Shown one piece after another: positions 11,716 to 48,626 of a DNA stretch of 64,000 nt (the stretch's first letter is position 1; the number at the start of each line of letters is the position of its first letter). Both the position numbers and the translations under genes were made by a program. Origin of the DNA: Candidatus Aminicenantes bacterium. Lineage in GTDB: Bacteria > Acidobacteriota > Aminicenantia > Aminicenantales > Aminicenantaceae. The stretch is taken from assembly GCA_011773465.1 (NCBI GenBank), contig WVXO01000064.1:57929-121928 (forward strand), read 5' to 3'. The notes beneath the pieces were generated by a model. That model was not told where the DNA came from, did not search any database, and saw nothing but the letters and a program-made list of their open reading frames with translations.

Positions 11716-12702
11716 ATGACCATTATCGATTTTCACAACCATTTTTATCCTCCCCAATACATTGAAGCTTTACAAAGCGGACCAAGCAATATCAAAGTGT
11801 CATTTGATTCTGAAAACAATCCGCTTCTACATTATCCGGGAGATTATAATATAGTTGTTCGGGAACACACGGATATTGACTTTCGGGCAGGGATTCTGAA
11901 AGAGGCTGGAATTGATAAACAGATTCTCACTTTTACTACTCCTGGAACCCATATCGAGTCTCCTGAACGTTCCGTTGAGTTAGCCCGCATGGTCAATAAC
12001 AGTTTCGCCAAAATAATGGATGAGCCCCAAGACTATTTCACAGCATTAGCCACACTTCCGCTCAACGACCCCCAGGCCTCGGTTGTTGAGCTAGAACGCG
12101 CCCTTAATGATCTGGGATTTAGAGGAGTGATGGTTTACAGCAATATCAACGGAACAGCACTGAGTGATAAATGCTTTTGGCCGTTATACGAAAAAGCCAA
12201 TGATTTAAATGCTGTGTTTTATATTCACCCCAGTTTTCCTGTGGGGGTGGAGGCAATGACTGATTACTGGCTTATGCCCCTGGTTGGATTCACCTTTGAT
12301 ACTACGTTGGCGGCGGCAAAACTGGTTTTTAGCGGAGTAGCCGAAAAATTTCCAAGAATAAGATGGGTTCTGGCCCATCTGGGCGGTGCAATTCCTTATC
12401 TTGCAGAGAGGCTTGATAGAGGATATTTTGCCTTCAAGGAATGCCGGGAGAATATCAATAAACCGCCGAGCGAATACCTTAAGAACTTTTACTATGATAC
12501 GGTAAACTTTGATCTAAATGCACTGAAGCTTGCGGTTGACTTTGCCGGTGCAGAGCATTTAGTCGCTGGAAGCGATTATCCTCATCAGATTGGAAGCCTG
12601 GGAAAAATGGTTGATAGCATCGAGAAGTTGAATATTTCTTCAAAAGAAAAAGAAGCTGTATACGGCGGAAATGCCAGCAAGCTATTGGAGATCATTCCCT
12701 AG
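11716..12702 (+). CDS. Amidohydrolase-2 family protein (ACMSD-like metal-dependent decarboxylase/hydrolase).
   Basis: 'IIDFHNHF' (HxH), 'VLAHLGGAIPY' and 'GSDYPH' are characteristic of PF04909-type TIM-barrel enzymes. Confidence 0.7.
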   Translation: MTIIDFHNHFYPPQYIEALQSGPSNIKVSFDSENNPLLHYPGDYNIVVREHTDIDFRAGILKEAGIDKQILTFTTPGTHIESPERSVELARMVNNSFAKIMDEPQDYFTALATLPLNDPQASVVELERALNDLGFRGVMVYSNINGTALSDKCFWPLYEKANDLNAVFYIHPSFPVGVEAMTDYWLMPLVGFTFDTTLAAAKLVFSGVAEKFPRIRWVLAHLGGAIPYLAERLDRGYFAFKECRENINKPPSEYLKNFYYDTVNFDLNALKLAVDFAGAEHLVAGSDYPHQIGSLGKMVDSIEKLNISSKEKEAVYGGNASKLLEIIP

Positions 12703-13702
12703 GATTAAAGGGATATGACTTTCCCAGGAATGAAAGGTTGCCGTCAGAATCAACAATGATGGCGCCGTAATCGAGGTATCTCTCTAATATTTTTGTCGGC
12801 TCCTGGCTTACAAACAGGGCCGTTGAGAGAGCATCACAAATAAGAGTTTCGGGCCCACAGACTGTTACGCTCTGTTTGCCTTGAGCAGGGTATCCTGTGC
12901 GTGGGTCAAAAACGTGATGGTAGCGAACTCCGTCCTTTAAAAAATATCTTTGATAATCACCTGTTGTTGCTGCTCCAAGGTTTGAGATTGATAAGACACC
13001 AAGAAAGCCGCTTTCCCGAGGATGCTTTATACCGATATTCCAGGATTGATCACTAGGATTTTTCCCCCAGCAGTAAAGATCGCCTCCAGCGTTTATAAAT
13101 CCCCTTGATATTCCCATCTGGAGTAAAGATTTCGACGCAAGGTCTATCCCGAAACCCTTGGCAATTGCTCCCCAATCAAGTTCCATGCCAGGCAGAAGGA
13201 TAAGAGCCTCATTTCTCTGTTCTATCTTTTCCATTCCGATGACTTTTAAAACAGATTTTATTTTTTCCGGGGCTGGCACAACATAGGATTTGTCAAAGAA
13301 TCCCCAAACTCGGGATAGCGGGGCTACTGTGACATCAAAACATCCATCGGAGTCATGATAAACTTTTAAGCTTCTCTCGAAAAGTTCTAAAACGAGCGGA
13401 GATGAGTAATCATCAGCTCCGGGTGAGAAGAGAGACTCTATTTCAGAAAATACTCGTTGCACCTCTTCCTGAGCTGATTTAGACATAGATGCTGAACTGA
13501 AGATATTTATCTCACAAATAGTATCAAAAGCAAGGATTGTTGATGTCTGCCACTTCTCTTTTGTACCACAACCAGGGAGAAGAAAAATAGAACCAAGCAG
13601 AAGGATACAGAGTTTTCTAGCCAATGGAAGTATCAATATGACTGGGTCCTTGTATTTCCAGGAAAAAATGGTTTGGAACACAGATAATCCTTTCTCCAGC
13701 AA
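12692..13702 (-). CDS. apbE: FAD:protein FMN transferase (ApbE family), lipoprotein.
   Basis: Lipobox 'FLLPGCG'. ApbE motifs include 'DVTVAPLSRVWGF', 'AIAKGFGIDL', 'INAGGDL', 'TTGDYQRYF' and 'HHVFDPRTGYPA'. The real start is probably downstream of the annotated one, as the signal begins near residue 30. Confidence 0.8.
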   Translation of the reverse strand: MLEKGLSVFQTIFSWKYKDPVILILPLARKLCILLLGSIFLLPGCGTKEKWQTSTILAFDTICEINIFSSASMSKSAQEEVQRVFSEIESLFSPGADDYSSPLVLELFERSLKVYHDSDGCFDVTVAPLSRVWGFFDKSYVVPAPEKIKSVLKVIGMEKIEQRNEALILLPGMELDWGAIAKGFGIDLASKSLLQMGISRGFINAGGDLYCWGKNPSDQSWNIGIKHPRESGFLGVLSISNLGAATTGDYQRYFLKDGVRYHHVFDPRTGYPAQGKQSVTVCGPETLICDALSTALFVSQEPTKILERYLDYGAIIVDSDGNLSFLGKSYPFNPRE

Positions 13703-14351
13703 AAGAAACGGGTGGAGAAGAGAGGCAGATTTTATGGCGGCAGGAAGATTCTGAGACCCAAGATTTTCTATCGTTGACTCTGAGAGTTATTTTTCCTCCT
13801 CTGGCTATGTATGATCTTGTGACATTTTCCTCCAAGGAAATCATCTCTGTCTTGCGACCATCCTTGTATACAGAAACATATTTTCCAGAGAAGAGGCGAG
13901 ATTGCCTGCTTTTAAATGAAACAATTGTCAAACAGGAGGAGAGCATGTGATTTTTATTCATTTCTCTCCAGAGAGAGTAGAATTTGCGAGATCTTATATC
14001 CCAGATTCTCCCTTCTTTTATTAGAGTGAAGGAAGGCAGATTTTTTCTGTGAAGAGGCCTGAATGAAAAGGTCAAACCAGCTTGGGTGGGTTTATGGACA
14101 TAGGTCAAGCCCCTCTGAGAGAGAATACGCCTTAGACCATTCTCACGGGGATGAGAATTGAGAAAAGAAAAGCTGTTTCCGTAGTTTGCGACATAATTAT
14201 GCAATTCTTCAAGGATTAAGGAGAAGATCTCTTCAGGATTGTCTGCAATAAGATAAAGCTCGCAGCCGCCTTTCCCTTTTTTTGCTGCCAGGAAAAGAGG
14301 AGTGAGAACAGGAGTTAAGATAACTTTTTTAAAAAAATCACGCCTCTCCAT
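13617..14351 (-). CDS. Hypothetical protein with a twin-arginine-like signal (start taken at MERRDFFKK).
   Basis: 'MERRDFFKKVILTPVLTPLFLAAK' resembles a Tat signal. Its 3' end overlaps the apbE start by ~86 nt, suggesting co-transcription. No known domain recognised. Confidence 0.45.
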   Translation of the reverse strand: MERRDFFKKVILTPVLTPLFLAAKKGKGGCELYLIADNPEEIFSLILEELHNYVANYGNSFSFLNSHPRENGLRRILSQRGLTYVHKPTQAGLTFSFRPLHRKNLPSFTLIKEGRIWDIRSRKFYSLWREMNKNHMLSSCLTIVSFKSRQSRLFSGKYVSVYKDGRKTEMISLEENVTRSYIARGGKITLRVNDRKSWVSESSCRHKICLSSPPVSFAGERIICVPNHFFLEIQGPSHIDTSIG

Positions 14352-14426
14352 TGCCGTCTCTTTCTTTATTATCTTAATAAAGCTATTGCTCAAAATTTTT
14401 ATTGAATTCTCATAGAAAGTCAACGG

Positions 14427-14539
14427 GGTCAGACCTTTCAAACTTTTATAAGTTGTATATTTTGGTATAATCTTATAAAGAACTGGGCCATTAAACAAGC
14501 TTCAAATGAAAAAATCATGAAAATTTGAAAGGTCTGACC
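14427..14539. promoter_or_regulatory. 16-bp inverted repeat (ggtcagacctttcaaa / tttgaaaggtctgacc) bracketing an extended -10 promoter-like TGGTATAAT (14463-14471).
   Basis: Both half-sites read directly and are perfect reverse complements ~80 bp apart. TTGACA-N17-TATTTT (14548-14576) follows. Upstream of the DoxX / Gfo-Idh-MocA operon. Confidence 0.45.
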
Positions 14540-14724
14540 ACGAAGTATTGACACGCCTTCTAAATCTGTATATTTTAGTGCTGATTTATTGGGTATCTTT
14601 TCTTAATCATGAACTCACGTAGTTTAAAACAAACTCTGAGCTATCGAAGAGTAAAATCTTACGTCTGCGAATGACTTATTGCAATATTTATGATTTTCTA
14701 TCCAAAACATAAGGTAGGGGAGAG

Positions 14725-15249
14725 ATGTTGAAAAAAACATTATTTTATCTAGCATTATATCCAACTCGGCTGCCAAATTATACTACGACTCAATTAACTG
14801 CTCTGATCGTTCTGAGGGTTCTTATTGGCTGGCATTTTCTGTATGAGGGTATCGTAAAAGTGCTTAATCCATATTGGTCTTCAGCTGGATTTCTTATAGA
14901 GGCAAAAGGAATATTTTCAGGACTGGCAACTTCTATAGTGGCCAGCCCCGAAGCTTTAAGAATAGTTGACTTTTTAAATATGTGGGGATTGATTGCGATC
15001 GGGTTGGGATTGATAGCAGGATGTCTGACTCGTATTGCAAGTGTTTCTGGAATTGCACTTTTATTTTTCTATTACGTTTTTAATCCGCCGTTTATCGGGT
15101 ATACATACTCAACCCCTGTCGAAGGAAGCTATATAATCGTTAACAAGAACTTAATAGAAATGTGTGCCTTGTTTGTTCTGACAATATTTCCTACGGGAAC
15201 AATCATCGGATTAGACAGGTTGATTTTCGTGAAAAAGAAACCTGAATAA
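14725..15249 (+). CDS. DoxX-family membrane protein.
   Basis: Four TM helices. 'TALIVLRVLIGWHFLYEGIVKV' matches the DoxX N-terminal signature. Confidence 0.65.
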   Translation: MLKKTLFYLALYPTRLPNYTTTQLTALIVLRVLIGWHFLYEGIVKVLNPYWSSAGFLIEAKGIFSGLATSIVASPEALRIVDFLNMWGLIAIGLGLIAGCLTRIASVSGIALLFFYYVFNPPFIGYTYSTPVEGSYIIVNKNLIEMCALFVLTIFPTGTIIGLDRLIFVKKKPE

Positions 15250-15283
15250 AAAATTCTGAAAATATTTTTTTGGAGGAATTCGA

Positions 15284-16981
15284 ATGAACCAGAAAAAAAA
15301 GAAAAAATCCTCTGATAAGCAGCGCAAAAAATCTACTATAAAAGAAAAGGTATCTGGCAAGATGAGCAAAAAGCCAGACAAGAAAGGAAAAGTGATGGAT
15401 CAAATAAGCAGAGAGCCTGAAAAAGAAGATAAGGTAAGTCTCGGGCGAAGGGATATTCTCAAAGCACTGGCGACAATTCCTGTATTTGGCCCGTTTTTAT
15501 ATGCCTTTTTAAAAAAGAAAATATCAGACGATTTTAAGAAAAAGGAGATTCTCGCGGAACTGGGCATAAGCAGGAAAGCACCAGCCGTTCTTCCTAAAAC
15601 CATCTTAAAAAAGTCCAAGGAACTCGTAAGGTTGGGAATTATCGGTTTCGGAGTCAGGGGCGAAGACCTCGTGCGTGGCGCTGGCTATGCTCATCCTGAC
15701 TGGATAGAGAAAAAAAAGAAACAAGCCAAAGAAAACAAATTGGATAAAGGCTTAGAAACATTCTTAAATCAGGAGGACTTGAATGTGGTTCTGTCCGGAG
15801 TCTGCGATGTGTTTGATGTCCGAGCAGAGAGAGGCATCGCTGCGTCTCTGAATGATGTCAGGCCCGGCGGAGGCTCTGGGTTATTAAAAGGAGCAAAACG
15901 TTATATTCACTACCAGGATCTTATCCAGAGCAATGATGTTGACGCTGTTATCATTGCAACCCCTGATCACTGGCATGCTCAAATGACTATCGATGCTGTC
16001 AACGCAGGAAAACATGTTTACTGCGAGAAGTGTATGACCAGGACCGTTGATGAAACATTTAAGATCAGCGAAGCTGTTAAGAACAGCGGAAAGGTTTTCC
16101 AATTAGGTCATCAAGGCCGACAACAGGAAAGCTATATCAAAGCCAAACAAATAGCGGAAAAGAATATTCTTGGAAAAATTACCCTCGTTGAGACAACAAC
16201 AAACCGCAACTCTCCCCAAGGAGCCTGGGTTTACGATATTCACGAAGAAGGAAGCCCTGAAACGATAGACTGGGAGCAGTTTCAAGGACCAGCTCCCCAC
16301 AAAGTGCCCTTCAGTCTCGAACGGTTTTTCCGCTGGCGCTGCTGGTTTGATTATGGAACGGGTCTCTCCGGTGATCTATTATCGCATGAATATGATGCTG
16401 CTAATCAGATCTTGGAGCTTGGCATTCCTAAATCAGTAGTGGCTTCTGGCGGCATCTTTTTTTTCAAAGACGGACGAGATGTCCCTGATGTTTTCCAAGC
16501 CGTGTATGAATACCGTGACAGGGATTTGACGCTTGTCTACAGCGCAACTCTCGCCAATGGCAGACACCGTGGGAAAATATTTATGGGCCATGACGCTTCA
16601 ATGGAGGTCGGCTCCAGCCTGACAGTCACAGCTGACTGGGAATCAACGCGGTATAAAGAAAAAATTATGAACAAGATCATAAACACATCATTACCGTTAT
16701 TCACCTACCAGCCCGGCTTAAAAGGAATTGACACAGTCACCTCAGCAACAGAAAGATATTTCGCCACTAGGGGGCTAATGTATACCATGAGAGGAGGAAG
16801 GCCGGTTAATACAACTCATCTCCATATCAAAGAATGGCTTGACTGTATCAGGAACGGCGGACAACCGAGTTGCAATATAGACCGCGGCTTCGAAGAAGCG
16901 ATAACCTGTCACATGGCAACTATTTCTTATCTGGAGGGGCGCAAGGTAGAATGGGACTCAGTGAACAAGAAAATTGTCTAA
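15284..16981 (+). CDS. Tat-exported Gfo/Idh/MocA-family NAD(P)-dependent oxidoreductase (glycoside 3-dehydrogenase-like).
   Basis: Lys-rich N-terminal extension, then Tat signal 'SLGRRDILKALATIPVFG'. Rossmann 'LGIIGFGVRGEDL' and 'VDAVIIATPDHWHAQMTIDAVNAGKHVYCEK' follow. The real start is probably an internal Met at about 15362 or 15395. Confidence 0.8.
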   Translation: MNQKKKKKSSDKQRKKSTIKEKVSGKMSKKPDKKGKVMDQISREPEKEDKVSLGRRDILKALATIPVFGPFLYAFLKKKISDDFKKKEILAELGISRKAPAVLPKTILKKSKELVRLGIIGFGVRGEDLVRGAGYAHPDWIEKKKKQAKENKLDKGLETFLNQEDLNVVLSGVCDVFDVRAERGIAASLNDVRPGGGSGLLKGAKRYIHYQDLIQSNDVDAVIIATPDHWHAQMTIDAVNAGKHVYCEKCMTRTVDETFKISEAVKNSGKVFQLGHQGRQQESYIKAKQIAEKNILGKITLVETTTNRNSPQGAWVYDIHEEGSPETIDWEQFQGPAPHKVPFSLERFFRWRCWFDYGTGLSGDLLSHEYDAANQILELGIPKSVVASGGIFFFKDGRDVPDVFQAVYEYRDRDLTLVYSATLANGRHRGKIFMGHDASMEVGSSLTVTADWESTRYKEKIMNKIINTSLPLFTYQPGLKGIDTVTSATERYFATRGLMYTMRGGRPVNTTHLHIKEWLDCIRNGGQPSCNIDRGFEEAITCHMATISYLEGRKVEWDSVNKKIV

Positions 16982-17084
16982 ACCGATTTCAGCTTTTTAA
17001 ATATGAATTTGAAAGGCACCCCGATAGTAACAATTCTACTAAATAGAAAAAAGCTATCGACTCATAAATGAAAGTGAGGTCAGC

Positions 17085-18302
17085 ATGAACGTAAAACTAC
17101 GCCTTGGCGTGATGATGTTTTTACAGTATGCAATCTGGGGCGCATGGGCTCCCGTGCTTTCAGCCTATTTAAAAGAAACCCTTGGATTCAGCGGACTACA
17201 CATTGGGATCATTTACAGCCTGCTACCTCTGGCTACGATAATTGCACCATTTATAGGCGGACAAATTGCTGACCGTTATTTCGCCTCCCAGAAAGTCGTG
17301 GGTTTCTTGCAGCTTACAGGCGGCGCTCTGCTTGTTATTATCTCAAATGTTACAGATTACAGAACCATGATGTGGCTGATGTTGTTTTACTGTCTCCTTT
17401 ATGCTCCAACACTTGCTTTGACCAATTCCATCGCTTTCATAAATCTCAAGGACCCTGAAAGGGACTTCGGGATAATAAGAGTATGGGGAACGATAGGATG
17501 GATCGTAGCGGGTCTTGTTCTAATGGGATGGAGATACACAGCCAAATCCTTTGAATCCGTAGTGTTTGCAGGAGACACTTTGCTTCTGGCTGGCATTTTT
17601 TCCCTTATTATGGGTATCCAGTCTTTCGCCTTGCCTCATACACCGCCCAAGAAAGAGGCGGCAAAGCCCTGGGCTTTCCTTGAAGCGCTCAAGATGATGA
17701 AGGAAAAAAACTTCGCTGTCTTCATCATTATTGCTTTTGTTGTGGCTACAGAGCTTATGTTCTACTACATCCTGACAGCACCCTTTCTGACATCGGAAAA
17801 AATAGGCCTTTCGAACGCTGCAATCCCGGGCGTGATGGTTATTGCCCAGGTGGCCGAGATCTTCGTCCTGGCGATTCTCCTGCCTTATCTTATTAAGAGA
17901 ATTGGCATCCGAAACATCCTGGTCATCGGTGTCTTAGCCTGGCCTGCCCGGTATATCATTTTCGCCATAGGTAAACCTTCATGGCTGGTCATCGCCTCAT
18001 TATCCCTTCATGGTTTCTGCTTTGTTTTCTTTTTTGCCGCAGCATTTATTTACGCTGATATGGTGGCACCAAGAGATATCCGGCATTCCGCGCAAAGCTT
18101 CATCATCCTTGTTACCTATGGAATCGGAAATTATTTAGGAAGCCTTTTTGCCGGCTGGATTCATGATTATTTCACGATAGCAGAAATAACAAATTGGACA
18201 GCTGTTTTTCTTGTCCCCTGCGTGTTGACTGTGCTCTGTGCTGTTGCCTTTCTGCTTTTCTTTAAACCGAAACAAACAGCAGTTCATCAGGAAAAGCGCT
18301 GA
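17085..18302 (+). CDS. MFS transporter of the nucleoside:H+ symporter (NupG/XapB-like) family.
   Basis: 'MNVKLRLGVMMFLQYAIWGAWAPVLSAYL' parallels the NupG N-terminus. Twelve TM helices. Confidence 0.7.
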   Translation: MNVKLRLGVMMFLQYAIWGAWAPVLSAYLKETLGFSGLHIGIIYSLLPLATIIAPFIGGQIADRYFASQKVVGFLQLTGGALLVIISNVTDYRTMMWLMLFYCLLYAPTLALTNSIAFINLKDPERDFGIIRVWGTIGWIVAGLVLMGWRYTAKSFESVVFAGDTLLLAGIFSLIMGIQSFALPHTPPKKEAAKPWAFLEALKMMKEKNFAVFIIIAFVVATELMFYYILTAPFLTSEKIGLSNAAIPGVMVIAQVAEIFVLAILLPYLIKRIGIRNILVIGVLAWPARYIIFAIGKPSWLVIASLSLHGFCFVFFFAAAFIYADMVAPRDIRHSAQSFIILVTYGIGNYLGSLFAGWIHDYFTIAEITNWTAVFLVPCVLTVLCAVAFLLFFKPKQTAVHQEKR

Positions 18303-18538
18303 GTTATGAGTGGTGGGGTATGTACAGCAAATTATAGATATCATGCCATGGAAAGTTAATTAAGGAAAGTCAGTTATGAGTAGCTAGTTATAAAACTTGG
18401 GTTATAAGTTCGGAGTTTTAGAAAATTTTAAATTTATTTCTTCCTGGCAATTCATCACTCACGACTCATGATTATTGGCCTGAACCCCGAACTAACAAAA
18501 CTTAACTCTTACTATTTCTATTAAAGGAGAAGGAGAAA

Positions 18539-19789
18539 ATGGCAAAAAGAAAATTGGGCGTTGGATTTATAGGAGCAGGTTTTATTACAAGATTTCACAT
18601 CCGCTCCTGGCTTAGTATCCGCGATGCAGATATTCTGGGAATAGTCTCCAGAACAGAGGAGAGAGCCAAAGAAGCCGCCGCCCTTGCCAAAAAACTCAAT
18701 GTTGGCGAGGCGAAAGCCTATAAATCGATAACCGACATGGTGGCTGATCCCGCAATAGATGCCATCTGGATATGTGCGCCGAACTTTGCTCGCCTTGAGA
18801 ATATGGAGGAGATTGTTGACGCACTAGAAAGAGGGAAAGGAGAACTAATCGGAGTTACGTGCGAAAAACCCCTTGGAAGAAACGTGAAAGAAGCACGAGC
18901 CATGCTCGAGCTTGTTCAAAAGGCAGGGCTTCTGGATGGATATCTTGAAAACCAGGTTTTTGCACCTTCTGTTGTCAGAGGAAAAGAGATTATCTGGACG
19001 CGCGGGGCTGCCATATCAGGGCGCCCCTATCTTGCCCGGGCAGCAGAAGAACACAGTGGCCCTCATATGCCCTGGTTCTGGGAAGGCGAGCTTCAGGGCG
19101 GCGGAGTACTCAATGATATGATGTGCCATTCTGTTGAAGAGGCCCGTTTCATGCTGACTCCTCCGGGTGCTGATAGAAACGCTCTCACACCTGTAAAAAT
19201 AAATGCTCATACTTCATGTTTGAAATGGCAGATTCCCGATTATGCAAGAATTCTCTATGAAAACAGCGGCGGCAAAACAGACTACATCAGAAGGCCTGCT
19301 GAAGATTTCGCCCGCTCTCTGTTAGAATACAAAGATGAAAATGGTGAGAAACTGATAGTCGAGACCACAACATCATGGAGCTTTGTGGGGGCTGGCCTTC
19401 GTTTGAGCATGGAATTGCTGGGGCCGGAATATTCTCTTTTGATCAACACCCTGGATTCAGGCTTAAAGGTGTTTTTTAGCCGGAATGTAAAGGGGAGCGC
19501 GGGAGAGGACCTTGTAGAAAAACAAAACGCTGAAATGGGACTCATGCCCGTAGTGAGTGATGAAGAGAGTGAATACGGATACATAGCGGAAAACCGCCAC
19601 ATGATTCTGTCTTTCCTGCGGGGTAAACGTCCAGAAGAAAACTTCGCTGATGGCGTTAATGTAACAGAGCTCCTGATGACAGCCTACATGAGCGCCGAGC
19701 AAGAGAAGACAATCGCCTTTCCACCTCCTGATCTTGATTCATTTGTACCGGCTGTTGCCAAAGGAGAATGGAACCCAAAGAAATCCTGA
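18539..19789 (+). CDS. Gfo/Idh/MocA-family oxidoreductase (cytoplasmic).
   Basis: 'KLGVGFIGAGFITRFHIRSW' Rossmann motif and 'AIWICAPNFARLENMEE'. No signal peptide. Confidence 0.75.
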   Translation: MAKRKLGVGFIGAGFITRFHIRSWLSIRDADILGIVSRTEERAKEAAALAKKLNVGEAKAYKSITDMVADPAIDAIWICAPNFARLENMEEIVDALERGKGELIGVTCEKPLGRNVKEARAMLELVQKAGLLDGYLENQVFAPSVVRGKEIIWTRGAAISGRPYLARAAEEHSGPHMPWFWEGELQGGGVLNDMMCHSVEEARFMLTPPGADRNALTPVKINAHTSCLKWQIPDYARILYENSGGKTDYIRRPAEDFARSLLEYKDENGEKLIVETTTSWSFVGAGLRLSMELLGPEYSLLINTLDSGLKVFFSRNVKGSAGEDLVEKQNAEMGLMPVVSDEESEYGYIAENRHMILSFLRGKRPEENFADGVNVTELLMTAYMSAEQEKTIAFPPPDLDSFVPAVAKGEWNPKKS

Positions 19790-19967
19790 TAAGAATCAAA
19801 GCCATGCTATTTAGACAGGAGACATCATGAAAAAGAAGCATCGCCAAATCAGTGATTGGAGAAGGTTTTGGGAAATAGCCTAGCTCCCTTCAGATTTTTA
19901 ACGCCATTCTCCATTCGCTCTTCTCGGCGTCTGCGTAACTCGCTCCGCTCAGACATACTCGCCAAAA

Positions 19968-20006
19968 AATGGGCGCCAAAAAATGGGGACAGGCCCCATT
20001 TTTGTA
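19968..20006. repeat. Family C palindrome (A-run, GGGGNC hairpin, T-run), terminator-like.
   Basis: 'aaaaaatgggcgccaaaaaatggggacaggccccatttttg'. Confidence 0.6.
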
Positions 20007-20042
20007 GGAGAGAGGATACCCTCGACTTGTGGACAGAACATC

Positions 20043-20072
20043 AGAAAATGGGGCCTGTCCCCATTTTTTGCC
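20043..20072. repeat. Family C palindrome, reverse complement of the 19975-20000 copy.
   Basis: 'agaaaatggggcctgtccccatttttt'. Confidence 0.6.
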
Positions 20073-20184
20073 CCTCGAAGAGCGAATTCCGAAGGCTAAA
20101 TCTTCAATGGTCGCTGCAGCTATTTCCCAAAACCTTTGTCCTGAACATAGCAACCGGTTATCACGCAAATGGAGGTATTTACTC

Positions 20185-21672
20185 ATGAAAAAGAAATTTT
20201 ACCTATTCATTGCCTTTGTGTTTATTATCTCAATTCCTTTCCAGGGCGAGGATCAGATAAAAAAAGCTGAAAAGAAAATCAGGCAGTCTGATATATCAGA
20301 AATTAAAGAAGAGGTGGCGAAGACAAATTGGGAGGCTGTTCGGATAAAAAAATTCCCGATTTCAGTGCAGTGCTGGACATTCAGGAAGTTTACATTTTTT
20401 GAAACACTGAAAAAGGTAAAAGAACTCGGTCTAAATCATTTGCAGCCCTATCCAGGTCAGCCGCTCAGCCACGATATGCCTGATGTTAAATTTGACCACA
20501 ACCTCAGCGATGTTCTCATAAACAGAGTGAAAAGTACATTAAAGGATCATGGAATTTCCCTTGTCAGTTACGGAGTTGTGGGTTTTGAAAACAATGAAGA
20601 AAGCATGCGGAAGGTTTTTGATTTTGCAAGAAAAATGGAAATTAGAACTATCGTCACTGAACCGGAATTTGATGACTACTCTCTCATTGAACAAATGGTC
20701 AAGGAATACAACATAAATATTGCCATTCATAATCATCCCGAGCCTTCAAAATATGCCCGCCCCGAAACAGTTCTTGACCATGTTAAGGGGCTCGACACGC
20801 GAATTGGCTCATGCGCAGATACCGGACACTGGATGCGCGCCGGCCTTAAACCTGTGGAGGCACTCAGGTTGCTCAAGGGACGCATCCTGGATGTTCATCT
20901 AAAGGACCGGAATAAATTCGGCACTGAAGGAGCCTACGATGTTCCTTTTGGAAAGGGAATGGCAAATATCAAGGACATACTTGCTGAACTTACCCTGCAG
21001 AATTTTTACGGCTACCTTGCCGTAGAGTATGAAAACCCGGATGAAGTCGACAATCCCTCGCCTTTAGTCAAAAAAAGCATCGAATACATAAAAAGTATAA
21101 CCTACTATGAGGGGTACGAAGAGATATTAAAAAGAACTCATGGTAGATACTCCAAGCATGGCTGGAACCATTATGGACCCGGCTACTTTGAACTTGATGA
21201 GAAAACTGGAATACTGAAAGGGCAGGGCGGAATGGGTCTTTTCTGGTACAGCGTGAAGAAGTATCAAAATTTTGTCATGGAACTTGACTATAAGTGTGCG
21301 GATAAAGCTACAAATTCAGGAATTTTTATTAGAGTTCCTGATATGCCGAAAAACGATGATTATATTTATCATTCCTTCGAGATTCAGATCAACGACGTCG
21401 GCAAGGGAATTCATAAGACAGCTGCTGTCTATGATGCAGAAGCACCCAGTTCTGATGCCTTCAAAGAGCCAGGTGAATGGAACCACTTCAAGATCACATT
21501 TAAAGATAAAAATATCCAGGTAGAATTAAACGGTACTCAGGTGATTGACTGGGATGCTGAGCCGAGAGGAAAAGTCAGAGATTTTGCAGAGGAGGGTTAC
21601 ATTGGTTTACAGAACCATGACAGCCAATCACCGGTTTATTTCAGGAATATCTTTGTAAAAGAATTAAAATAA
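20185..21672 (+). CDS. Secreted fusion protein: sugar-phosphate isomerase/epimerase (xylose-isomerase-like TIM barrel) N-terminal domain plus DUF1080 (3-keto-glycoside hydrolase-like) C-terminal domain.
   Basis: Signal peptide 'MKKKFYLFIAFVFIISIPFQG'. The TIM-barrel region includes 'IAIHNHPEP...GSCADTGHWMRAG...DVHLKD'. The C-terminus 'GIFIRVPD...SFEIQINDVGKG...GEWNHFKITFKDKNIQVELNGTQV...GYIGLQNHDSQSPVYFRNIFVKEL' matches DUF1080. The start is moved to the signal-peptide Met. Confidence 0.7.
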   Translation: MKKKFYLFIAFVFIISIPFQGEDQIKKAEKKIRQSDISEIKEEVAKTNWEAVRIKKFPISVQCWTFRKFTFFETLKKVKELGLNHLQPYPGQPLSHDMPDVKFDHNLSDVLINRVKSTLKDHGISLVSYGVVGFENNEESMRKVFDFARKMEIRTIVTEPEFDDYSLIEQMVKEYNINIAIHNHPEPSKYARPETVLDHVKGLDTRIGSCADTGHWMRAGLKPVEALRLLKGRILDVHLKDRNKFGTEGAYDVPFGKGMANIKDILAELTLQNFYGYLAVEYENPDEVDNPSPLVKKSIEYIKSITYYEGYEEILKRTHGRYSKHGWNHYGPGYFELDEKTGILKGQGGMGLFWYSVKKYQNFVMELDYKCADKATNSGIFIRVPDMPKNDDYIYHSFEIQINDVGKGIHKTAAVYDAEAPSSDAFKEPGEWNHFKITFKDKNIQVELNGTQVIDWDAEPRGKVRDFAEEGYIGLQNHDSQSPVYFRNIFVKELK

Positions 21673-21743
21673 ATTAGAAAAGAACTCAGAATATAATAAA
21701 TATGGCAAATAAGAAGAAACTTATATTATAATAAAGTCTCAAA

Positions 21744-23966
21744 ATGGAGGGAAAAATGAAGAAAGGGATCGCATCAATCTTTATCGCAGCATTTATTTTT
21801 TTCTTCTCTCTTTATGGATTTCAAGAACAACAAGAGCAATTTCCGCCTGAAAAATACGAGGTTGAAGTCAGGCTGATTTTAGTTGATGTCATCGTGACAA
21901 AGGATGGGGAATTTGTAAAAGACCTAACCCAAGAGGACTTTGAACTCTACGAAGACGGGAAAAAAGTCCCCATAAACTCGTTTGAACTCGTGAGCTTTGA
22001 GGAAAGAGAGCTGAAGATTTTAGAAGAGCCGGAGGAAAAAAGATCTGTTCTTCCTAAGAAAAAACTTGCTGTCATATTTGACGCCATCAATTCCTGGAAG
22101 AGAGAAGTCAAGATAGAAAGCGAAAAAATCGTTGATCAACTTTTTTCATTAATCAAACTTGGCCATGAGGTGATGATACTTCAACTTGACAGGAGAAGGG
22201 GGCTTGAAATCCTCCAACCTTTCACAACCAGCGAGGCTTTCATAAGAAAAGCTGTTGAGAAGGCCTCAGGCACCATATGGAAGCTAGGCTATGATATAGC
22301 CGAGCCCATTGATGAGACAACACGGGATTTCACACCTTCCAGAGGCACTGGAGGGCGAGAGGATGACAGGCTCGTCTCTGACGCTGAGTATTATAAGAAC
22401 ATGACAAGACTGGAGTACTTGTATTTAGAACAACAGAAATTTGAGAAAACAATCGGAGGAATCTTGGCCTCGTGTAATATGTTAAGGAATCTGCCAGGCA
22501 GGAAATCCATACTCCTTATAAGTGCCGGCATTCCAGACCTTTCTCCAGGGGATATGCTCCCCAAAATTCGATCCGGCATCGCAGGCGAAGAAATAGAAAG
22601 GGTTCGCGATGATAAATTATATGCATCGATTCAAAATATGCGAGTATTTGATCCCTTTAACATCTTGAAGGGAAAGACCTTCAGAGATGGAGAAGAAGTC
22701 ATAAAAGAGGTAATCCGCTATGCTAATGCTCAAAATGTCTCACTCTATTCTTTAGACTCTGATATATATGTAAAAAATATCTATTCTGGCACCACTGCAG
22801 AATATTACCAACAATACCAAGCAGAACATCTCAAGACCAGAGAGCAAGATAAGATTAGGAAGGTCCAAAACTTAGCTTGGTTGTCTGAAGATACAGGGGC
22901 AGAGTCATTGAGGGGGGCCAAGAAATTCGATCAATTCCTCCAGGTCATGAGTACAGATTTAACCTACTATTACCAATTGAGTTTTTACCCGCAGAGGCCA
23001 GAGGCGGATGACAAGTACCACAAATTAAAGGTCAAAGTAAAGCGCAAAGGTGTTGACGCGCGTTTTAGAAAAGGATACACAGACTACTCCCTGGAAGAAT
23101 TCAATAAAATGCTTCTTATCACTGCTTATTATAATCCTTCTGTGTTTGAACAATTGCCTTTCAAAGGAGAGTATGTCCCCTTCATTACCAAAGCTGGAAA
23201 ATATGAGCCCTGGATGAATATTGCCCTGCCGGCGAGGGATATTTTCATAGAGAGATTCATCGAGCATGCACCAAAAATATTTGACCTTCATATCTGGATA
23301 AGCGATAAAAGAAGCGGAGAGAAGAGCTTCAGTGGAGATATAAAACTTCCATTTAACATAAATCCTTCTTTCATGGATTTTGTAAAAAAAGTTGACTATC
23401 TAACCTTTCACTTCAAAGGTCCAGAGCTTCCTTTCAAGCATAATGAGTATAAAGCAGTTTTAGCTCTTGTTGACCCTCAAACCAATGAAATCGGCGCCTG
23501 GGAATCATCGCTTGCTATTCCTGATTTTAGGAAGAGCAAAGAGGCAGCGGTAGTAAATTGTGTCTTGGGCGATTTGACTCAAAATCCCAAACCGGCAAGA
23601 AAATCTTTTGCGCTCTCTAAACAAGATGGAGGCCTCGAGTATGGTCCAATAAAGTTTTATCCAAAAGTGACCAACCAGTTCTTCAAGCAGGAAAAAGCCT
23701 CTGTTTTTGCGCAGATCTATCTTCCTCAGGGAAAAGAAGATATTCAGCCTGAATTCATAATCAGGAGTGAAGACAAATCCATTCGTTATGTTCCAGGAGA
23801 GCTTGTTGCTGAGTCTTGGGATAAAAAATCAAAAATCTGGAGTGCGATATTTTCTTTAGATTTTAACCAAGCAACCCTCGGAGAAAATATTTTCAGGATT
23901 GAAATGGCTGGAACTGGGGAAAAGGTTGTTTCAAGCAGAGAGATCGAGCTGACTATACTCTACTAA
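21744..23966 (+). CDS. VWFA-related acidobacterial-domain protein (large secreted protein).
   Basis: Signal peptide. 'VRLILVDVIVTKDGEFVKDLTQEDFELYEDGKKVPINSFE' is the hallmark start of the VWFA-related Acidobacterial domain (TIGR03436-type). Confidence 0.65.
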   Translation: MEGKMKKGIASIFIAAFIFFFSLYGFQEQQEQFPPEKYEVEVRLILVDVIVTKDGEFVKDLTQEDFELYEDGKKVPINSFELVSFEERELKILEEPEEKRSVLPKKKLAVIFDAINSWKREVKIESEKIVDQLFSLIKLGHEVMILQLDRRRGLEILQPFTTSEAFIRKAVEKASGTIWKLGYDIAEPIDETTRDFTPSRGTGGREDDRLVSDAEYYKNMTRLEYLYLEQQKFEKTIGGILASCNMLRNLPGRKSILLISAGIPDLSPGDMLPKIRSGIAGEEIERVRDDKLYASIQNMRVFDPFNILKGKTFRDGEEVIKEVIRYANAQNVSLYSLDSDIYVKNIYSGTTAEYYQQYQAEHLKTREQDKIRKVQNLAWLSEDTGAESLRGAKKFDQFLQVMSTDLTYYYQLSFYPQRPEADDKYHKLKVKVKRKGVDARFRKGYTDYSLEEFNKMLLITAYYNPSVFEQLPFKGEYVPFITKAGKYEPWMNIALPARDIFIERFIEHAPKIFDLHIWISDKRSGEKSFSGDIKLPFNINPSFMDFVKKVDYLTFHFKGPELPFKHNEYKAVLALVDPQTNEIGAWESSLAIPDFRKSKEAAVVNCVLGDLTQNPKPARKSFALSKQDGGLEYGPIKFYPKVTNQFFKQEKASVFAQIYLPQGKEDIQPEFIIRSEDKSIRYVPGELVAESWDKKSKIWSAIFSLDFNQATLGENIFRIEMAGTGEKVVSSREIELTILY

Positions 23967-24120
23967 ACACCTACAGCTTATTTAAGCAGTATCTTTGTAA
24001 GGGAAATAAAATAAACATAAAAAAGACAGTAATCGGCTCGGAGGGGGAGATAATTTCTTAAAATATATTTAGCGTTTTATTCCTGAAGGGCAGTTAGTTT
24101 CAGAATCTTTTGATTAGAAC

Positions 24121-24543
24121 CTAATCCTGGTTTGATATCCATTCCTTTATAAGCTTATCAATCTTATCGCGAACCTCTCGAAATTTTTGCAGTTTCTCCT
24201 CTTCAGATCCCATCTGCATAGCAGGATCTTCTATATCCCAATGAATCCTTTCGCCCGCACCTAGAAATACCGGGCACTGCTTCTCGGCATTGGCGCAAAC
24301 AGTGATCAAGTAATCAAAATCTATTTTTCCCATGTATTCATCCACATGTTTGGAACCATGTCCTTCTAAGCTAATCCCAACCTCTTCCATAACTCTTATC
24401 GTGTAGGGAGCAATCCCTAATGGTCTTATTCCAGCGCTGTAGGCTTCGAATTCATCGCCAGCATATTTCCTGAGAAATGCCTCTGCCATCTGACTGCGCG
24501 CGGAATTTCCGGTACAAATAAAAAGAACTTTTGCCTTCTTCAT
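24121..24543 (-). CDS. arsC: Arsenate reductase / low-molecular-weight protein-tyrosine phosphatase family (ArsC, LMW-PTP type).
   Basis: P-loop 'CTGNSARS' (CX5R) at the N-terminus. 140 aa. 'ITVCANAEKQCPVF' carries the downstream Cys pair of thioredoxin-coupled ArsC. Confidence 0.75.
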   Translation of the reverse strand: MKKAKVLFICTGNSARSQMAEAFLRKYAGDEFEAYSAGIRPLGIAPYTIRVMEEVGISLEGHGSKHVDEYMGKIDFDYLITVCANAEKQCPVFLGAGERIHWDIEDPAMQMGSEEEKLQKFREVRDKIDKLIKEWISNQD

Positions 24544-24743
24544 AACAAACTCTCTCTTAATTTTTTATGCATCTCTATAAAATCCCCCCAATAACCCTTT
24601 AACAACAACAACGACATATTATTATAACACCGATCGGGATTTTAATGCTCCTGGAATTTTATGATGTGGAAAGAGTGAAAAAAGAAAACAATCCCTTTAT
24701 CTTATGTTCTGTCCCAGAGTAGAAACCGTCCGCTTTCTTTCGG

Positions 24744-24788
24744 GAAATGGGGCCTGGCCCCATTTTAGTGGCCCCATTTTAGCAATTT
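24744..24788. repeat. Family C palindrome plus an adjacent half-site, in a divergent promoter region.
   Basis: 'gaaatggggcctggccccattttagtggccccatttt'. Confidence 0.6.
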
Positions 24789-24825
24789 TGGAAATTTGGA
24801 TAGACTATGATATTAATAATTTAAT

Positions 24826-25806
24826 GTGGAGGCTATGATGAAAGCAACAAACCTTGAACTCAGTTCTATGAATCGGCGCGAATTTTTCACATTAGCTGCT
24901 GGGATGAGCACATCAATGTTCCTTTCGCATCCGGAGATAATAAGTCTCTTACATAGAAATGGAAATTTTTATAGTTCCCGGGAAAAACTGGTGGGAACTG
25001 CTCAGGTCAAGCTGTCAAAGACTCAACAAATTTTCTATAAAATTATTAGGCAGGCCAGGAAAGAGGGCTGGTCATCTCTTTCTATCGGAGCATGTATGGG
25101 GAAAGTCGCCCTGCTTTTTCTAAATACAGAGTATGTCGCAGGAACGCTTGAAGGAGAAGGCCCGGAAATCTGCAGAGTTGACCTCACAGGATTGGACTGC
25201 GTAACCTTTTTTGAAAACGTGTTGTGTATTTCAAGAATCTTAAAAAAAGATAAAACATCATTTGACGATCTTAAGGGTGAACTTACTTTTACCCGATATA
25301 GAGAGGGGATACTGACTGACTACACCTCACGCTTGCACTACACTTCTGACTGGATTTATGACAACGAAAAGAAAAAGGTAGTAAGGAATATCACTAAGGA
25401 AATCGGTGGTGAAGAATTTCTCTTAAAGATCTCATTCATATCAAAAAATCCGCATTATTATCAGGCCCTGAAGGAATTTCCAGAATTTATAGTGACAATA
25501 GCTAATCTTGAAAAAGAAATAAACAAGCGCCAGCACTGGTATATTCCCAAAATTAAGATTAAAGGAGCGCAAAAACATATTCAAACAGGAGATATTATTG
25601 CCCTGGTAACAGATAAAGAGGGCCTGGATTATGGACATACAGGTCTGGGTTATCAAGATGAGAGAGGGAAAATAAGATTTCTACATGCTTCGCTCAAAGA
25701 AAAAAAAGTGGTCCTGGATGCAGAACTCTATGAATATGTGCAATCTGTCGAAACACATACTGGCATTACAGTAGCAAGACCGTTAGAAATTAAGCGGGTG
25801 AAGTAG
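24826..25806 (+). CDS. Tat-signal secreted protein, putative NlpC/P60-superfamily-like hydrolase (DUF1460-like).
   Basis: 'NRREFFTLAAGMSTSM' Tat motif. 'GLDCVTFFENVLCISR' is a cysteine-containing motif. The real start is likely ATG 24838, after the GGAGG at 24827-24831. Confidence 0.35.
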   Translation: MEAMMKATNLELSSMNRREFFTLAAGMSTSMFLSHPEIISLLHRNGNFYSSREKLVGTAQVKLSKTQQIFYKIIRQARKEGWSSLSIGACMGKVALLFLNTEYVAGTLEGEGPEICRVDLTGLDCVTFFENVLCISRILKKDKTSFDDLKGELTFTRYREGILTDYTSRLHYTSDWIYDNEKKKVVRNITKEIGGEEFLLKISFISKNPHYYQALKEFPEFIVTIANLEKEINKRQHWYIPKIKIKGAQKHIQTGDIIALVTDKEGLDYGHTGLGYQDERGKIRFLHASLKEKKVVLDAELYEYVQSVETHTGITVARPLEIKRVK

Positions 25807-40627: not shown

Positions 40628-40663
40628 TTAAAAACCTCTTTTTTCGTATAATACGTTTATAAT

Positions 40664-40795
40664 GTGGGCTTTATGAATCAAGCCCCTACAAATTAATCAC
40701 GTTTCTTCAAAATAAACAAGGTGGGTTTGATAAATCAAACCCCTACAAATCAATCAAATCCTAGCAATTTATCAAGCCCCTACAATCTAATCAGG
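40664..40795. repeat. Composite cluster of family A REP-like units.
   Basis: 'gggctttatgaatcaagcccctacaaatt...gggtttgataaatcaaacccctacaaatcaatcaaatcc...atcaagcccctacaatctaatc'. Closely similar to the 39361-39445 portion on the other side of nifS. Confidence 0.8.
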
Positions 40796-40807
40796 TTCCT
40801 CCTTTTC

Positions 40808-42133: not shown

Positions 42134-42225
42134 TTTACCTCCGTTCTAATCCCAATCTTATTGAGCTAATTGCTTATGATGGCTGCACCATCCACTGATA
42201 AGGAAAATGCTATTTTAAATAATTT

Positions 42226-44273: not shown

Positions 44274-44452
44274 ATGAGTCCTCCTTTTGATACATAAATT
44301 ATCGAGTCTTCCCCTATGAGATTTATATATCTCTCAAGGAGCGATTCTTATAAAATAATACAAATCTAACGGGATGAATAACGATAATTTAAATCATATA
44401 AATCGGGATAGATCCGACAATTTAAACTAACAAAATTTGGGGTGTCAGTCAA

Positions 44453-45583: not shown

Positions 45584-45718
45584 GAATTCTCCTCCTCTCT
45601 GCGATTATAAATGTATCATATAAAAAGGAGACAGGCTACTTTTTTATCCTCAGTGCTGCTCTCTTTGTGGCCTTTTTAAACCTCATTTCCAGGCCTGAAA
45701 AATAAATAGCGCCTTTTC

Positions 45719-46897: not shown

Positions 46898-46982
46898 TTT
46901 TTTATTATATGCAAGAAAAGATAGAAAGGCGAGACTATAAATGGAGTCTTCATATGATGATATTTGGGGGATGGCATCGCTC

Positions 46983-47128
46983 CCAAAAGATTTTTTACAC
47001 CATTCAAATTCCGCACTTCTCGGCGGCTGCGTAACCCGCGCTACTCAAACATACTCGCTGGTCCACTACGTGGACTCCCTTCGAAGAACAGAATTTAAAG
47101 GCTAAATCTTTTAAGGTCGCTTCATCCA
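46983..47128. repeat. Family B repeated element (copy 2), with a short central hairpin 'ggtccactacgtggac'.
   Basis: 'ccattcaaattccgcacttctcggcggctgcgtaacccgcgctactcaaacatactcgct' ... 'cagaatttaaaggctaaatcttttaaggtcgc'. Immediately upstream of CDS 47150. Confidence 0.7.
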
Positions 47129-47149
47129 TCCCTCAAATACTCCTGCGTT

Positions 47150-48589: not shown

Positions 48590-48626
48590 GATGTGATGAA
48601 TCAGACCCATTCAAATATGAAAAAAG

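Follow-up and report, generated by a model that had tools for sequence, protein, structure and literature searches.

A predicted operon for oxidative (3-keto) glycoside cleavage in the periplasm of an Aminicenantes bacterium, with a TIM-barrel/DUF1080 fusion protein and a candidate flavinylated dehydrogenase

The oxidative route of glycoside cleavage, which proceeds through 3-keto intermediates, has recently been recognised as a broad alternative to the classical glycosidases, and alpha-, beta-, thio- and pseudo-glycosides are cleaved by it. The question raised by the locus described here is whether five consecutive open reading frames (ORFs) of an Aminicenantes bacterium encode such a route and, if so, how the enzyme of its first step could be re-oxidised. 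The locus occupies positions 14725-21672, on the plus strand, of a 64,000-nucleotide stretch of contig WVXO01000064.1, and this whole stretch is referred to as the window. Scans with Pfam and NCBIfam identify, in the order of the locus, a DoxX-family protein, a Gfo/Idh/MocA dehydrogenase with a twin-arginine translocation (Tat) signal, a major facilitator superfamily (MFS) transporter, a cytosolic Gfo/Idh/MocA dehydrogenase, and a protein in which a xylose-isomerase-like triosephosphate isomerase (TIM) barrel (PF01261) is fused to DUF1080 (PF06439, labelled '3-keto-disaccharide hydrolase'). All five genes of the run that had been proposed in an earlier note on this DNA are thus present, on the plus strand and at the positions given there. 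The functional assignments made below are predictions based on homology, conserved residues and gene linkage. The explanation that is put forward for the locus as a whole, and that is considered fairly probable, is that it is a periplasmic oxidative (3-keto) glycoside-cleavage operon.

The systems with which the locus is best compared are the clusters AL1-AL5 of Alistipes and BT2156-2160 of Bacteroides thetaiotaomicron (Nasseri et al. 2024, bioRxiv 10.1101/2024.03.25.586180); work by Liou (2020) and Liu (2021) is cited in that study. In these clusters, AL3/BT3 is a Tat-exported Gfo/Idh/MocA enzyme that oxidises C3 with a tightly bound nicotinamide adenine dinucleotide (NAD), AL1/BT1 is a secreted TIM barrel acting as a 3-keto-beta-glucoside 1,2-lyase, AL2/BT2 is a secreted DUF1080 protein, and AL4/BT4 is a cytosolic Gfo/Idh/MocA protein. 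The same four enzyme modules, with the same predicted locations and with conservation of the residues that are catalytic in AL3 and in BT2/AL2, are found at the window locus, and the 3-keto gene set that the earlier note had recognised is therefore matched module by module. The differences are that lyase and hydratase form a single polypeptide in the window and separate proteins in the AL/BT clusters, that the TIM domain of the window belongs to another subfamily (3p6l-like, ~250 amino acids), and that the window operon adds DoxX, ApbE and the MFS transporter. The re-oxidation of AL3/BT3 in vivo was left open by Nasseri et al., who name dedicated proteins as one possibility.

The fusion protein and the predicted pathway

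The mechanical ORF of the fusion gene opens at a GTG at position 20029. The true start is the ATG at 20185 (MKKKFYLFIAFVFIISIPF...), which gives a Sec-type signal, because the resulting length of 495 amino acids agrees with that of the best 120 homologs (468-521 amino acids). In the numbering of the long ORF, Pfam places PF01261 at residues 128-356 (E 2e-20) and PF06439 at residues 377-544 (E 1e-35), which confirms that the two domains named in the earlier note are parts of one protein. The AlphaFold model of the fusion, built on 43 homologs, is confident and consists of a TIM barrel and a jelly roll, and has a predicted local distance difference test (pLDDT) score of 87.6 and a predicted template modelling (pTM) score of 0.84.

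In the TIM barrel, the residues H182, H184, D212, H238 and E281 are invariant in the 43 homologs. The spacing of this H-x-H / D / H / E pattern is 30/26/43, to be compared with 31/26/44 in AtOGE of Agrobacterium tumefaciens and 33/26/35 in AL1. The pattern and its spacing thus agree with those of AL1 and of AtOGE (H132/H134/D163/H189/E233), the latter of which is likewise a short TIM barrel without a lid (Bitter et al. 2023, PMC10628242), and the AtOGE structure (8bvk) gives an in-register, marginal profile match to the window domain (E 1.3e-3). The first metal ligand is a histidine, as in the O-glycoside eliminases, whereas the C-glycoside enzymes have a glutamate. The nearest structure is 3p6l (TM-score 0.90, 37% identity). 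An ordinary endonuclease IV, which the earlier note had considered as an alternative for this domain, is rejected, since 5zhz is matched only at E 0.95 and the best matches, with E values of 1e-32 to 2e-67, are sugar isomerase-like.

The jelly roll matches AL2 (8v31, E 2e-8) and BT2 (8tda and 3osd, E 3e-7) in profile comparisons, and in Foldseek searches it matches AL2, BT2 and 8rr2/9fbe ('3-keto-glycoside eliminase/hydratase') with E values of ~1e-10 to 1e-11. The alignment to AL2 shows that the NSG, E-x-Q, Y-D and Q-x-H motifs are kept, which are the published metal-binding and active-site positions of BT2. The residues concerned, N377, E399, Q401, Y416, Q476 and H478, correspond to Asn134, Glu164, Gln166, Tyr190, Gln273 and His275 of BT2, and are invariant in the 43 homologs. 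A reading of this domain as a family 16 glycoside hydrolase (GH16) was also considered and rejected: the catalytic motif E-[ILV]-D-[IVAF]-[VILMF]0-1-E is absent from the fusion, and it is absent from BT2 too.

The fusion is genuine and common in nature, not exceptional. A search over 5.8 billion proteins gives at least 1,867 homologs of the fusion, and among the best 120 of these, from which the domain content was taken, all are fused, with PF01261 and PF06439 in about 490 amino acids. The homologs carry only generic names ('DUF1080 domain-containing', 'family 16 glycoside hydrolase', 'sugar phosphate isomerase/epimerase'). The fusion is found in species-representative genomes of Aminicenantes, other Acidobacteriota, Neomarinimicrobiota and Calditrichota, and one homolog from the protein search is named Latescibacterota; a signal peptide or a lipobox is kept in all fusions checked. 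The earlier note had called the fusion unusual and not one that its author had seen described: the number of homologs speaks against its rarity, and no published description of a TIM-DUF1080 fusion was found in the literature searched. Elsewhere, each half is also a separate gene in the same operon, with a TIM-only ortholog (71% identical, in L053; L-numbers denote related loci) and DUF1080-only orthologs (68-73% identical; Gemmatimonadota, L059, L085) at the same operon position. This makes it a Rosetta-stone fusion, of the kind expected for enzymes that act on successive intermediates, and the repeated joining and separation of lyase and hydratase in evolution provides independent evidence, from genomes, that both act on the same intermediate.

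The gene neighbours of the fusion were counted in the 56 loci that have it in full. Among these, a gene for the cytosolic Gfo/Idh/MocA protein adjoins the fusion gene in 49 and the MFS gene in 40. The tightest unit is therefore formed by the MFS transporter, the cytosolic dehydrogenase and the lyase/hydratase, and the oxidase, consisting of DoxX and the Tat-exported dehydrogenase, is a separable module. This tightest unit is read as a unit for the release of a 3-keto-sugar in the periplasm, its import, and its reduction in the cytosol. Comparable roles have been suggested for the Gfo oxidoreductase of Agrobacterium and for the transporter and reductase genes of Caulobacter, and the cytosolic enzyme of the window would correspond to AL4/BT4 and to this Agrobacterium oxidoreductase.

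Considering the active sites, the predicted locations and the gene linkage together, it is likely, and is held here with good confidence, that the locus is an operon for glycoside cleavage by the 3-keto route, with a lyase/hydratase that is bifunctional. In the proposed pathway, the Tat-exported Gfo/Idh/MocA enzyme, with its NAD tightly held, would oxidise the C3 hydroxyl of the terminal sugar of a glycoside, as suggested by homology and by its conserved residues. The activated glycoside would then be cleaved by the secreted fusion protein, in agreement with the conservation of both its active sites. Its TIM barrel would be a metal-dependent 1,2-lyase for beta-linked 3-keto-glycosides, and its DUF1080 domain would be a lyase for alpha-linked 3-keto-glycosides and, in addition, a hydratase by which 2-hydroxy-3-keto-glycal is converted into the 3-keto-sugar, such that the fusion would put the lyase and the hydratase for the reactive enone product of this lyase on one polypeptide. 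Subsequently, the NupG-like MFS transporter would import the 3-keto-sugar, and the cytosolic Gfo/Idh/MocA enzyme would reduce it to an ordinary sugar, as the linkage of these genes suggests.

Next to the operon, the window encodes permeases for amino acids and for lactate, an amidohydrolase, an amidase and a VWA protein, which provide no glycan context, and the related loci adjoin fucose-utilisation genes, GH38, sulfatases or polysaccharide lyases. Broad specificity has been reported for the AL/BT enzymes, and by analogy it is plausible that the window operon has a broad role, acting in the exo mode on several glycosides. The sole gene of a classical glycosidase type seen in the window is GH63/MGH1-like (mannosylglycerate-hydrolase-like, trehalase-like), at 54455-56815.

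Other arrangements of these modules are also observed. At L083 (13189-15911) the operon is present in an unfused version, in which the TIM barrel stands alone (275 amino acids, lipoprotein-like, 54% identical to the window domain) and is followed by a separate protein of 618 amino acids with three tandem DUF1080 domains. A second, unrelated AP_endonuc_2 TIM subfamily is present where the window-type TIM domain is missing, namely at L084 (10554-11450), L085 (6392-7336) and L086 (10019-10942). These TIM barrels have Tat signals of their own (RRQFL, RREFL, RRRFM) and accompany the DoxX-dehydrogenase module.

The Tat-exported dehydrogenase, its flavinylation-like motif and DoxX

In the predicted glycoside 3-dehydrogenase, a hydrophobic stretch comes after the twin-arginine motif RRDILK (RR at 15446-15451). 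The length of its homologs (525-545 amino acids) indicates the ATG at 15395 as its start. The true start is nevertheless uncertain, because some homologs (565-609 amino acids) include a lysine-rich extension like the one encoded by the 37 codons upstream of the likely start (15284-15394), which are extremely rich in lysine (MNQKKKKKSSDKQRKK...). Among solved structures, its best match is AL3, a glucoside 3-dehydrogenase (8tdh/8tdf, E 1.6e-27), and the residues Gln161, Arg192, Asp248 and His252 of AL3 are all conserved, as Q277, R308, D364 and H368 in the numbering of the ORF. Foldseek searches with the model of the dehydrogenase give generic Gfo/Idh/MocA matches only. When compared with the AL3-type enzymes, the window dehydrogenase has four extra insertions, one of which carries a flavinylation-like motif.

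This insertion has 27 residues (440-466 of the 528-residue protein) and contains the sequence D-T-V-T-S-A-T. The recognition motif of ApbE, the flavin mononucleotide (FMN) transferase, is D-x-x-[S/T]-G-A-[S/T], with the FMN being attached to the last residue (PMC12052999), and the window motif agrees with this consensus at six of the seven positions. The strict pattern D-x-x-[ST]-[GSA]-A-[ST] is found in 115 of 120 close homologs, and when the variants T-T-A-T and T-S-P-T are allowed the motif is found in 28 of 30 locus orthologs; the background for the variant-tolerant motif is 8 matches per 502,251 ORF residues. The Tat-exported dehydrogenase is the sole protein family of the operon that has the motif. 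Among representatives of clusters at 50% identity, it is kept in relatives down to 39% identity, of which P0255 and P0258 (39-42% identity) have the canonical D-A-V-S-G-A-T, and the whole 27-residue segment is absent from 74 more distant Tat-exported Gfo relatives (<39% identity). The relatives with the canonical motif, at L086 (8001-9536) and L087 (8001-9497), are encoded in polysaccharide-utilisation loci of the Bacteroidota style, with SusD, type IX secretion (T9SS) tails, Laminin_G_3 proteins, sulfatases and a TIM barrel.

An ApbE gene lies next to the operon. The encoded protein has a hydrophobic N-terminus with a lipobox-like site (LLPGC), and the gene ends 1.0 kb upstream of DoxX. Among 28 related loci with the Tat-exported dehydrogenase, 19 have an ApbE gene at most 4 kb from it; of the nine loci without one, six have <2 kb of upstream sequence. 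Four arrangements are seen, in which the ApbE gene is divergent and upstream (the window and its close relatives), convergent and downstream (Aminicenans sakinawicola), again convergent and downstream (Neomarinimicrobiota), or co-directional and directly before DoxX (Gemmatimonadota, L084, L085), and between these arrangements the ApbE proteins share only about 30% identity.

The gene for the NusG_II protein, on the minus strand at 13617-14354, flanks the sugar cluster in many Aminicenantes loci and travels with ApbE; through several rearrangements it stays by the cluster, sometimes on the opposite side from ApbE. The protein has a cysteine-rich C-terminus, and a flavinylation motif was looked for in it and not found. 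Its membership in the system is uncertain.

The score of the DoxX protein (22.0 bits) lies just below the gathering score of PF07681 (23.6 bits), and its orthologs reach 25.9 (L088), 26.7 (L070) and 23.2 (L084) bits. A hydrophobicity scan gives five partly overlapping hydrophobic windows, which are read as about four transmembrane helices. The DoxX gene is directly upstream of, or overlaps with, the gene of the Tat-exported dehydrogenase in 26 of the 28 loci, and relatives of 44-51% identity keep the same order in surroundings that are unrelated (L088, L090). Since the pair is found alone in other surroundings, it behaves as a portable two-gene module. At L088 (5055-7115) the pair is within a cluster of sulfatase, beta-helix and polysaccharide-lyase genes, with a DoxX that is 46% identical, and DoxX together with a motif-bearing Tat-exported dehydrogenase is also seen alone at L090 (2392-4489) and at L081 (565-3023). 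In Aromatoleum, the BtdLS dehydrogenase has a DoxX/D-family protein as its small membrane subunit, and DoxD belongs to a thiosulfate:quinone oxidoreductase (PMC10084136).

It is possible that these proteins provide the missing re-oxidation step. ApbE would put FMN on T489 of the D-T-V-T-S-A-T motif, in a flexible insertion of the dehydrogenase, and the tethered flavin would then be the second, oxidising substrate of a ping-pong cycle, accepting the hydride from the bound NADH. The reduced flavin would pass its electrons by way of the co-translated DoxX to quinone, and the first enzyme would thereby be a glycoside:quinone oxidoreductase instead of a redox-neutral transhydrogenase. For the flavinylation of T489 by ApbE, the recurrence of the motif and of its neighbouring ApbE gene suggests a chance that falls a little short of even, and the transfer of electrons via DoxX to quinone, which is proposed from the gene pairing, is a tentative suggestion that is more doubtful. 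It is with similar reserve, on motif and gene order, that this subfamily is proposed as a new class of ApbE substrates and the DoxX-dehydrogenase pair as a portable glycoside:quinone oxidoreductase module by which sugar oxidation would be coupled to respiration. If true, this would provide a route for the re-oxidation in vivo of periplasmic 3-dehydrogenases with tightly bound NAD, a new class of protein-flavinylation substrates, a function for the poorly understood DoxX family, and a way for glycoside oxidation to feed the respiratory chain directly.

Alternative readings and comparison with known systems

Several observations weigh against this reading, either of the pathway or of its link to a flavin. 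The best NCBIfam model of the Tat-exported dehydrogenase, BT_2158_fam, has a cut-off of 750 bits and is matched with only 128, over profile positions 79-269 of 487 (~190 residues), which makes the protein a relative and not an ortholog. Profile comparisons detect no sequence match between the TIM domain and AL1/BT1 (E up to 1), and the nearest structures of this domain, 3p6l, 4kw2 and 3lmz, all from Parabacteroides, are of unknown function. A DUF6377 membrane regulator, the counterpart of AL5/BT2160, was not found in the Pfam scan of 36 ORFs of the window. DoxX and the Tat-exported dehydrogenase adjoin the fusion gene in just 8 of the 56 full-fusion loci, and, given the other 48, the periplasmic oxidase must in some cases be encoded elsewhere or be another enzyme. 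The hairpin-rich insertion at the fusion gene, described below, may reduce the co-transcription of this gene with the upstream genes. With respect to the flavin, Pfam finds only Gfo/Idh/MocA domains in the Tat-exported dehydrogenase, and FMN_bind, DUF2271, DUF3570, Flavodoxin_4 and FMN_red are not detected. Gfo/Idh/MocA enzymes are not known to be flavoproteins. The window motif has a serine at the glycine position, and the variants T-S-P-T and T-T-A-T occur in one ortholog each; a Gly-to-Ala change in the recognition motif is reported to halve the modification, still giving ~50% flavinylation (PMC12052999). The motif cannot be placed in the AlphaFold model because residues 427-455 have pLDDT values <50. 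Neither ApbE nor DoxX is found near the relatives with the canonical motif in L086 and L087, and ApbE is not found nearby in L047, L049 and L083, where the flanks are ample. Furthermore, the Aminicenantes loci without the Tat-exported dehydrogenase keep their ApbE gene, which may therefore serve another purpose.

Some of these points would be accounted for if the same 3-keto pathway were redox-neutral, in the way proposed for AL3/BT3, with the bound NADH being re-oxidised by the released 3-keto-sugar or by another carbonyl compound. The D-x-x-T-S-A-T motif would then be structural or substrate-binding, ApbE would be there for other flavoproteins, and DoxX would be an anchor or would be unrelated. 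This is in agreement with the observation that AL3 equilibrates pairs of glycosides and 3-keto-sugars without cofactor exchange, its authors favouring a recycling by means of 3-ketoglucose, and also with the off-consensus glycine position, with the ApbE genes that stay beside the cluster in the absence of the dehydrogenase, and with the motif-bearing relatives in L083, L086 and L087 that have no ApbE gene nearby. It does not explain why ApbE is linked to the dehydrogenase in four independent arrangements across phyla, with the ApbE gene of the Gemmatimonadota-type loci running in the same direction directly before DoxX and the dehydrogenase, or why the motif is confined, within the operon, to the Tat-exported dehydrogenase, whose divergent members have the canonical SGAT. 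A redox-neutral cycle in the periplasm would also leave the conserved importer and the cytosolic reductase without an obvious substrate. On balance, the redox-neutral pathway is considered somewhat unlikely.

The other alternatives concern the pathway itself. It is highly improbable that the DUF1080 domain is non-catalytic, being a lectin-like or GH16-like module on an isomerase/epimerase TIM barrel, in an operon for the interconversion of free sugars or cyclitols by enzymes of the IolG/IolE/IolI type: the names given to some homologs by NCBI ('family 16 glycoside hydrolase') and by JGI ('sugar phosphate isomerase/epimerase') point in this direction, as do weak NCBIfam matches to IolG (63-79 bits, the best being 79) and IolE (37 bits), but these scores are far under the cut-offs of 355 and 290, the GH16 motif is absent, the active-site residues of BT2/AL2 are invariant, and the enzymes of the operon are predicted to be periplasmic whereas inositol catabolism is cytosolic. 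Nor do the data favour nucleosides or ribosyl conjugates, C-glycosides (DgpA/DgpBC) or levoglucosan (LgdA/LgdB) as the substrates, which is very unlikely. The transporter does belong to Nuc_H_symport of Pfam, from which the earlier note had taken its hint at a nucleoside-type or ribosyl substrate, but that hint loses its basis when the score for the nucleoside permease model TIGR00889 (298 bits) is compared with the cut-off of 446, and models of LacY and of oligosaccharide transporters match this protein as well. The structural relatives of the two dehydrogenases include DgpA and levoglucosan dehydrogenase, with the LevoglcsnDh model reaching only 54-57 bits against a cut-off of 650. In its fold the TIM domain distantly matches DgpB-C; it has a histidine instead of the glutamate ligand that is typical of C-glycoside enzymes, and is without the lid and the second subunit of these. 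The Dgp and Lgd pathways are, moreover, cytosolic, whereas the first two steps are predicted to be exported here. Assignments of the operon to inositol, levoglucosan or nucleosides were therefore rejected, as every curated NCBIfam cut-off is missed by a wide margin.

The predicted periplasmic 3-keto pathway would share its chemistry with systems that are built from other parts. In Agrobacterium tumefaciens, the GlycDH-AtOGE-AtHYD-Gfo set has the same sequence of oxidation, beta-elimination, hydration and reduction, and there also a Gfo reductase regenerates glucose; the oxidase, however, is not a Gfo/Idh/MocA protein but a flavoenzyme that has a Tat partner of its own, the hydratase AtHYD is a second TIM barrel and not a DUF1080 protein, and nothing is fused (Bitter et al. 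2023, PMC10628242). In Caulobacter, a membrane-linked periplasmic oxidation by LacABC is likewise followed by secreted DUF1080 proteins (CCNA_01705, CCNA_01698), and a linked transporter and sugar reductase have been proposed for the salvage of the 3-keto-sugar, whereas LacABC is of the FAD/cytochrome type (FAD, flavin adenine dinucleotide), unrelated to Gfo/Idh/MocA, and the DUF1080 proteins are without a fused TIM barrel (Price et al. 2022, PMC9007349).

The candidate flavin carrier and its membrane partner can be compared in the same way. Like the proteins known to be flavinylated by ApbE (Meheust 2021, PMC8238504; Huang 2024, PMC11334425; PMC12052999), the dehydrogenase is a predicted extracytosolic protein and candidate target, with a D-x-x-[ST]-G-A-[ST]-like motif in an exposed loop or insertion; the cluster contains apbE, and a periplasmic enzyme is proposed to be linked to membrane electron carriers. 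The candidate carrier would differ from them in being a Gfo/Idh/MocA NAD enzyme instead of a protein with one of the known flavin-carrying domains named above, and in having mostly serine at the glycine position of the motif. Gfo/Idh/MocA and DoxX are absent from two large flavinylation surveys (PMC8238504, PMC11334425), and text searches that paired ApbE or flavinylation with Gfo/Idh/MocA or DoxX found no relevant paper. The hydroxyhydroquinone dehydrogenase BtdLS and DoxDA have a small four-helix DoxX/D membrane protein that is encoded beside a soluble dehydrogenase subunit and works with it, and quinones are their acceptors or products (PMC10084136); the substrates are unrelated, and the window DoxX is borderline for the Pfam model.

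The sequence relatives of the Tat-exported dehydrogenase include the precursor form of the glucose-fructose oxidoreductase of Zymomonas (1h6a). This enzyme is also exported by the Tat pathway, has a non-dissociating nicotinamide cofactor and follows a ping-pong mechanism, whereas its second substrate is a free sugar instead of a tethered flavin, and it is not known to have a lyase, hydratase or membrane partner. With respect to its distribution, the predicted 3-keto route is widespread in uncultured sediment phyla, including Aminicenantes, Gemmatimonadota, Neomarinimicrobiota and KSB1.

Layout of the locus and neighbouring features

The coordinates of the features are listed in Table 1. The closest genomic matches to the locus are from Aminicenantes metagenome-assembled genomes, with 85-93% protein identity, and the gene downstream of it encodes a VWA protein of the acidobacterial type (NCBIfam). 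Scans for consensus promoters and terminators give matches that are no more frequent than in shuffled sequence, an Rfam scan of 14000-25000 gives just two sub-threshold hairpin matches, which are treated as chance, and notable repeats were not found in the 236 bp that separate the MFS gene from the gene of the cytosolic dehydrogenase. The ApbE gene, the flavinylation-like motif and the 358-bp insertion at the fusion gene are not mentioned in the earlier note.

Table 1. Features of the glycoside-cleavage locus and its upstream neighbours, in window coordinates
Feature	Coordinates	Strand	Remarks
ApbE (FAD:protein FMN transferase), probable lipoprotein	12692..13702	-	PF02424 E 8e-65; divergent from the operon
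NusG_II-domain protein	13617..14354	-	PF07009 E 3e-15; Tat-like MERRDFFKK
DoxX-family membrane protein, ~4 transmembrane segments	14725..15249	+	PF07681 22.0 bits
Tat-exported Gfo/Idh/MocA, predicted glycoside 3-dehydrogenase	15395..16981 (ORF from 15284)	+	PF01408 E 5e-15
D-T-V-T-S-A-T, flavinylation-like motif, D483 to T489 of the ORF	16730..16750	+	within the 27-residue subfamily insertion
NupG/LacY-like MFS symporter	17085..18302	+	PF03825 Nuc_H_symport, 351 bits
Cytosolic Gfo/Idh/MocA, proposed 3-keto-sugar reductase	18539..19789	+	no signal sequence
Palindromic 358-bp insertion, 5' end of fusion gene	19838..20195	.	
Secreted fusion protein, 495 amino acids: signal peptide, TIM barrel, DUF1080	20185..21672	+	
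TIM-barrel domain, residues ~55-305, predicted metal-dependent 3-keto-beta-glycoside 1,2-lyase	20347..21096	+	PF01261
DUF1080 jelly roll, residues ~312-493, predicted 3-keto-alpha-glycoside lyase / 2-hydroxy-3-keto-glycal hydratase	21118..21660	+	PF06439

The insertion looks like a miniature inverted-repeat transposable element. Relative to the empty site in L001, it follows immediately on the fusion gene's first 11 bases, and it is bounded by a target-like duplication of 13 bp (TCATGAAAAAGAA), at 19825-37 and 20183-95, which includes the ATG and regenerates the start codon, such that the fusion gene is intact; a GGAGG motif precedes the new start, and a remnant ORF of 18 codons is left at 19827. 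Within the insertion there are nested perfect inverted repeats of 18 nucleotides (19862-79/20119-36) and 26 nucleotides (19977-20002/20045-70). A match to an Rfam family was not found, and further copies were sought in the window and in 87 loci, where the only one found is that of L002, which differs in its centre. The hairpin AAATGGGGCCTGGCCCCATTT at 24745-24765, between the VWA region and an AmiA-like amidase gene, is related to the two hairpin arms of the insertion, and may be a shared terminator-like or repeat motif.

Further downstream in the window, and unrelated to the sugar operon, there are four class-V aminotransferase-like genes within 14 kb (39470-40627, 43128-44273, 50537-51862 and 52002-53225; the region as a whole is 39470-53225), together with which DUF1015, an M20 peptidase and two 4Fe-4S proteins are encoded.

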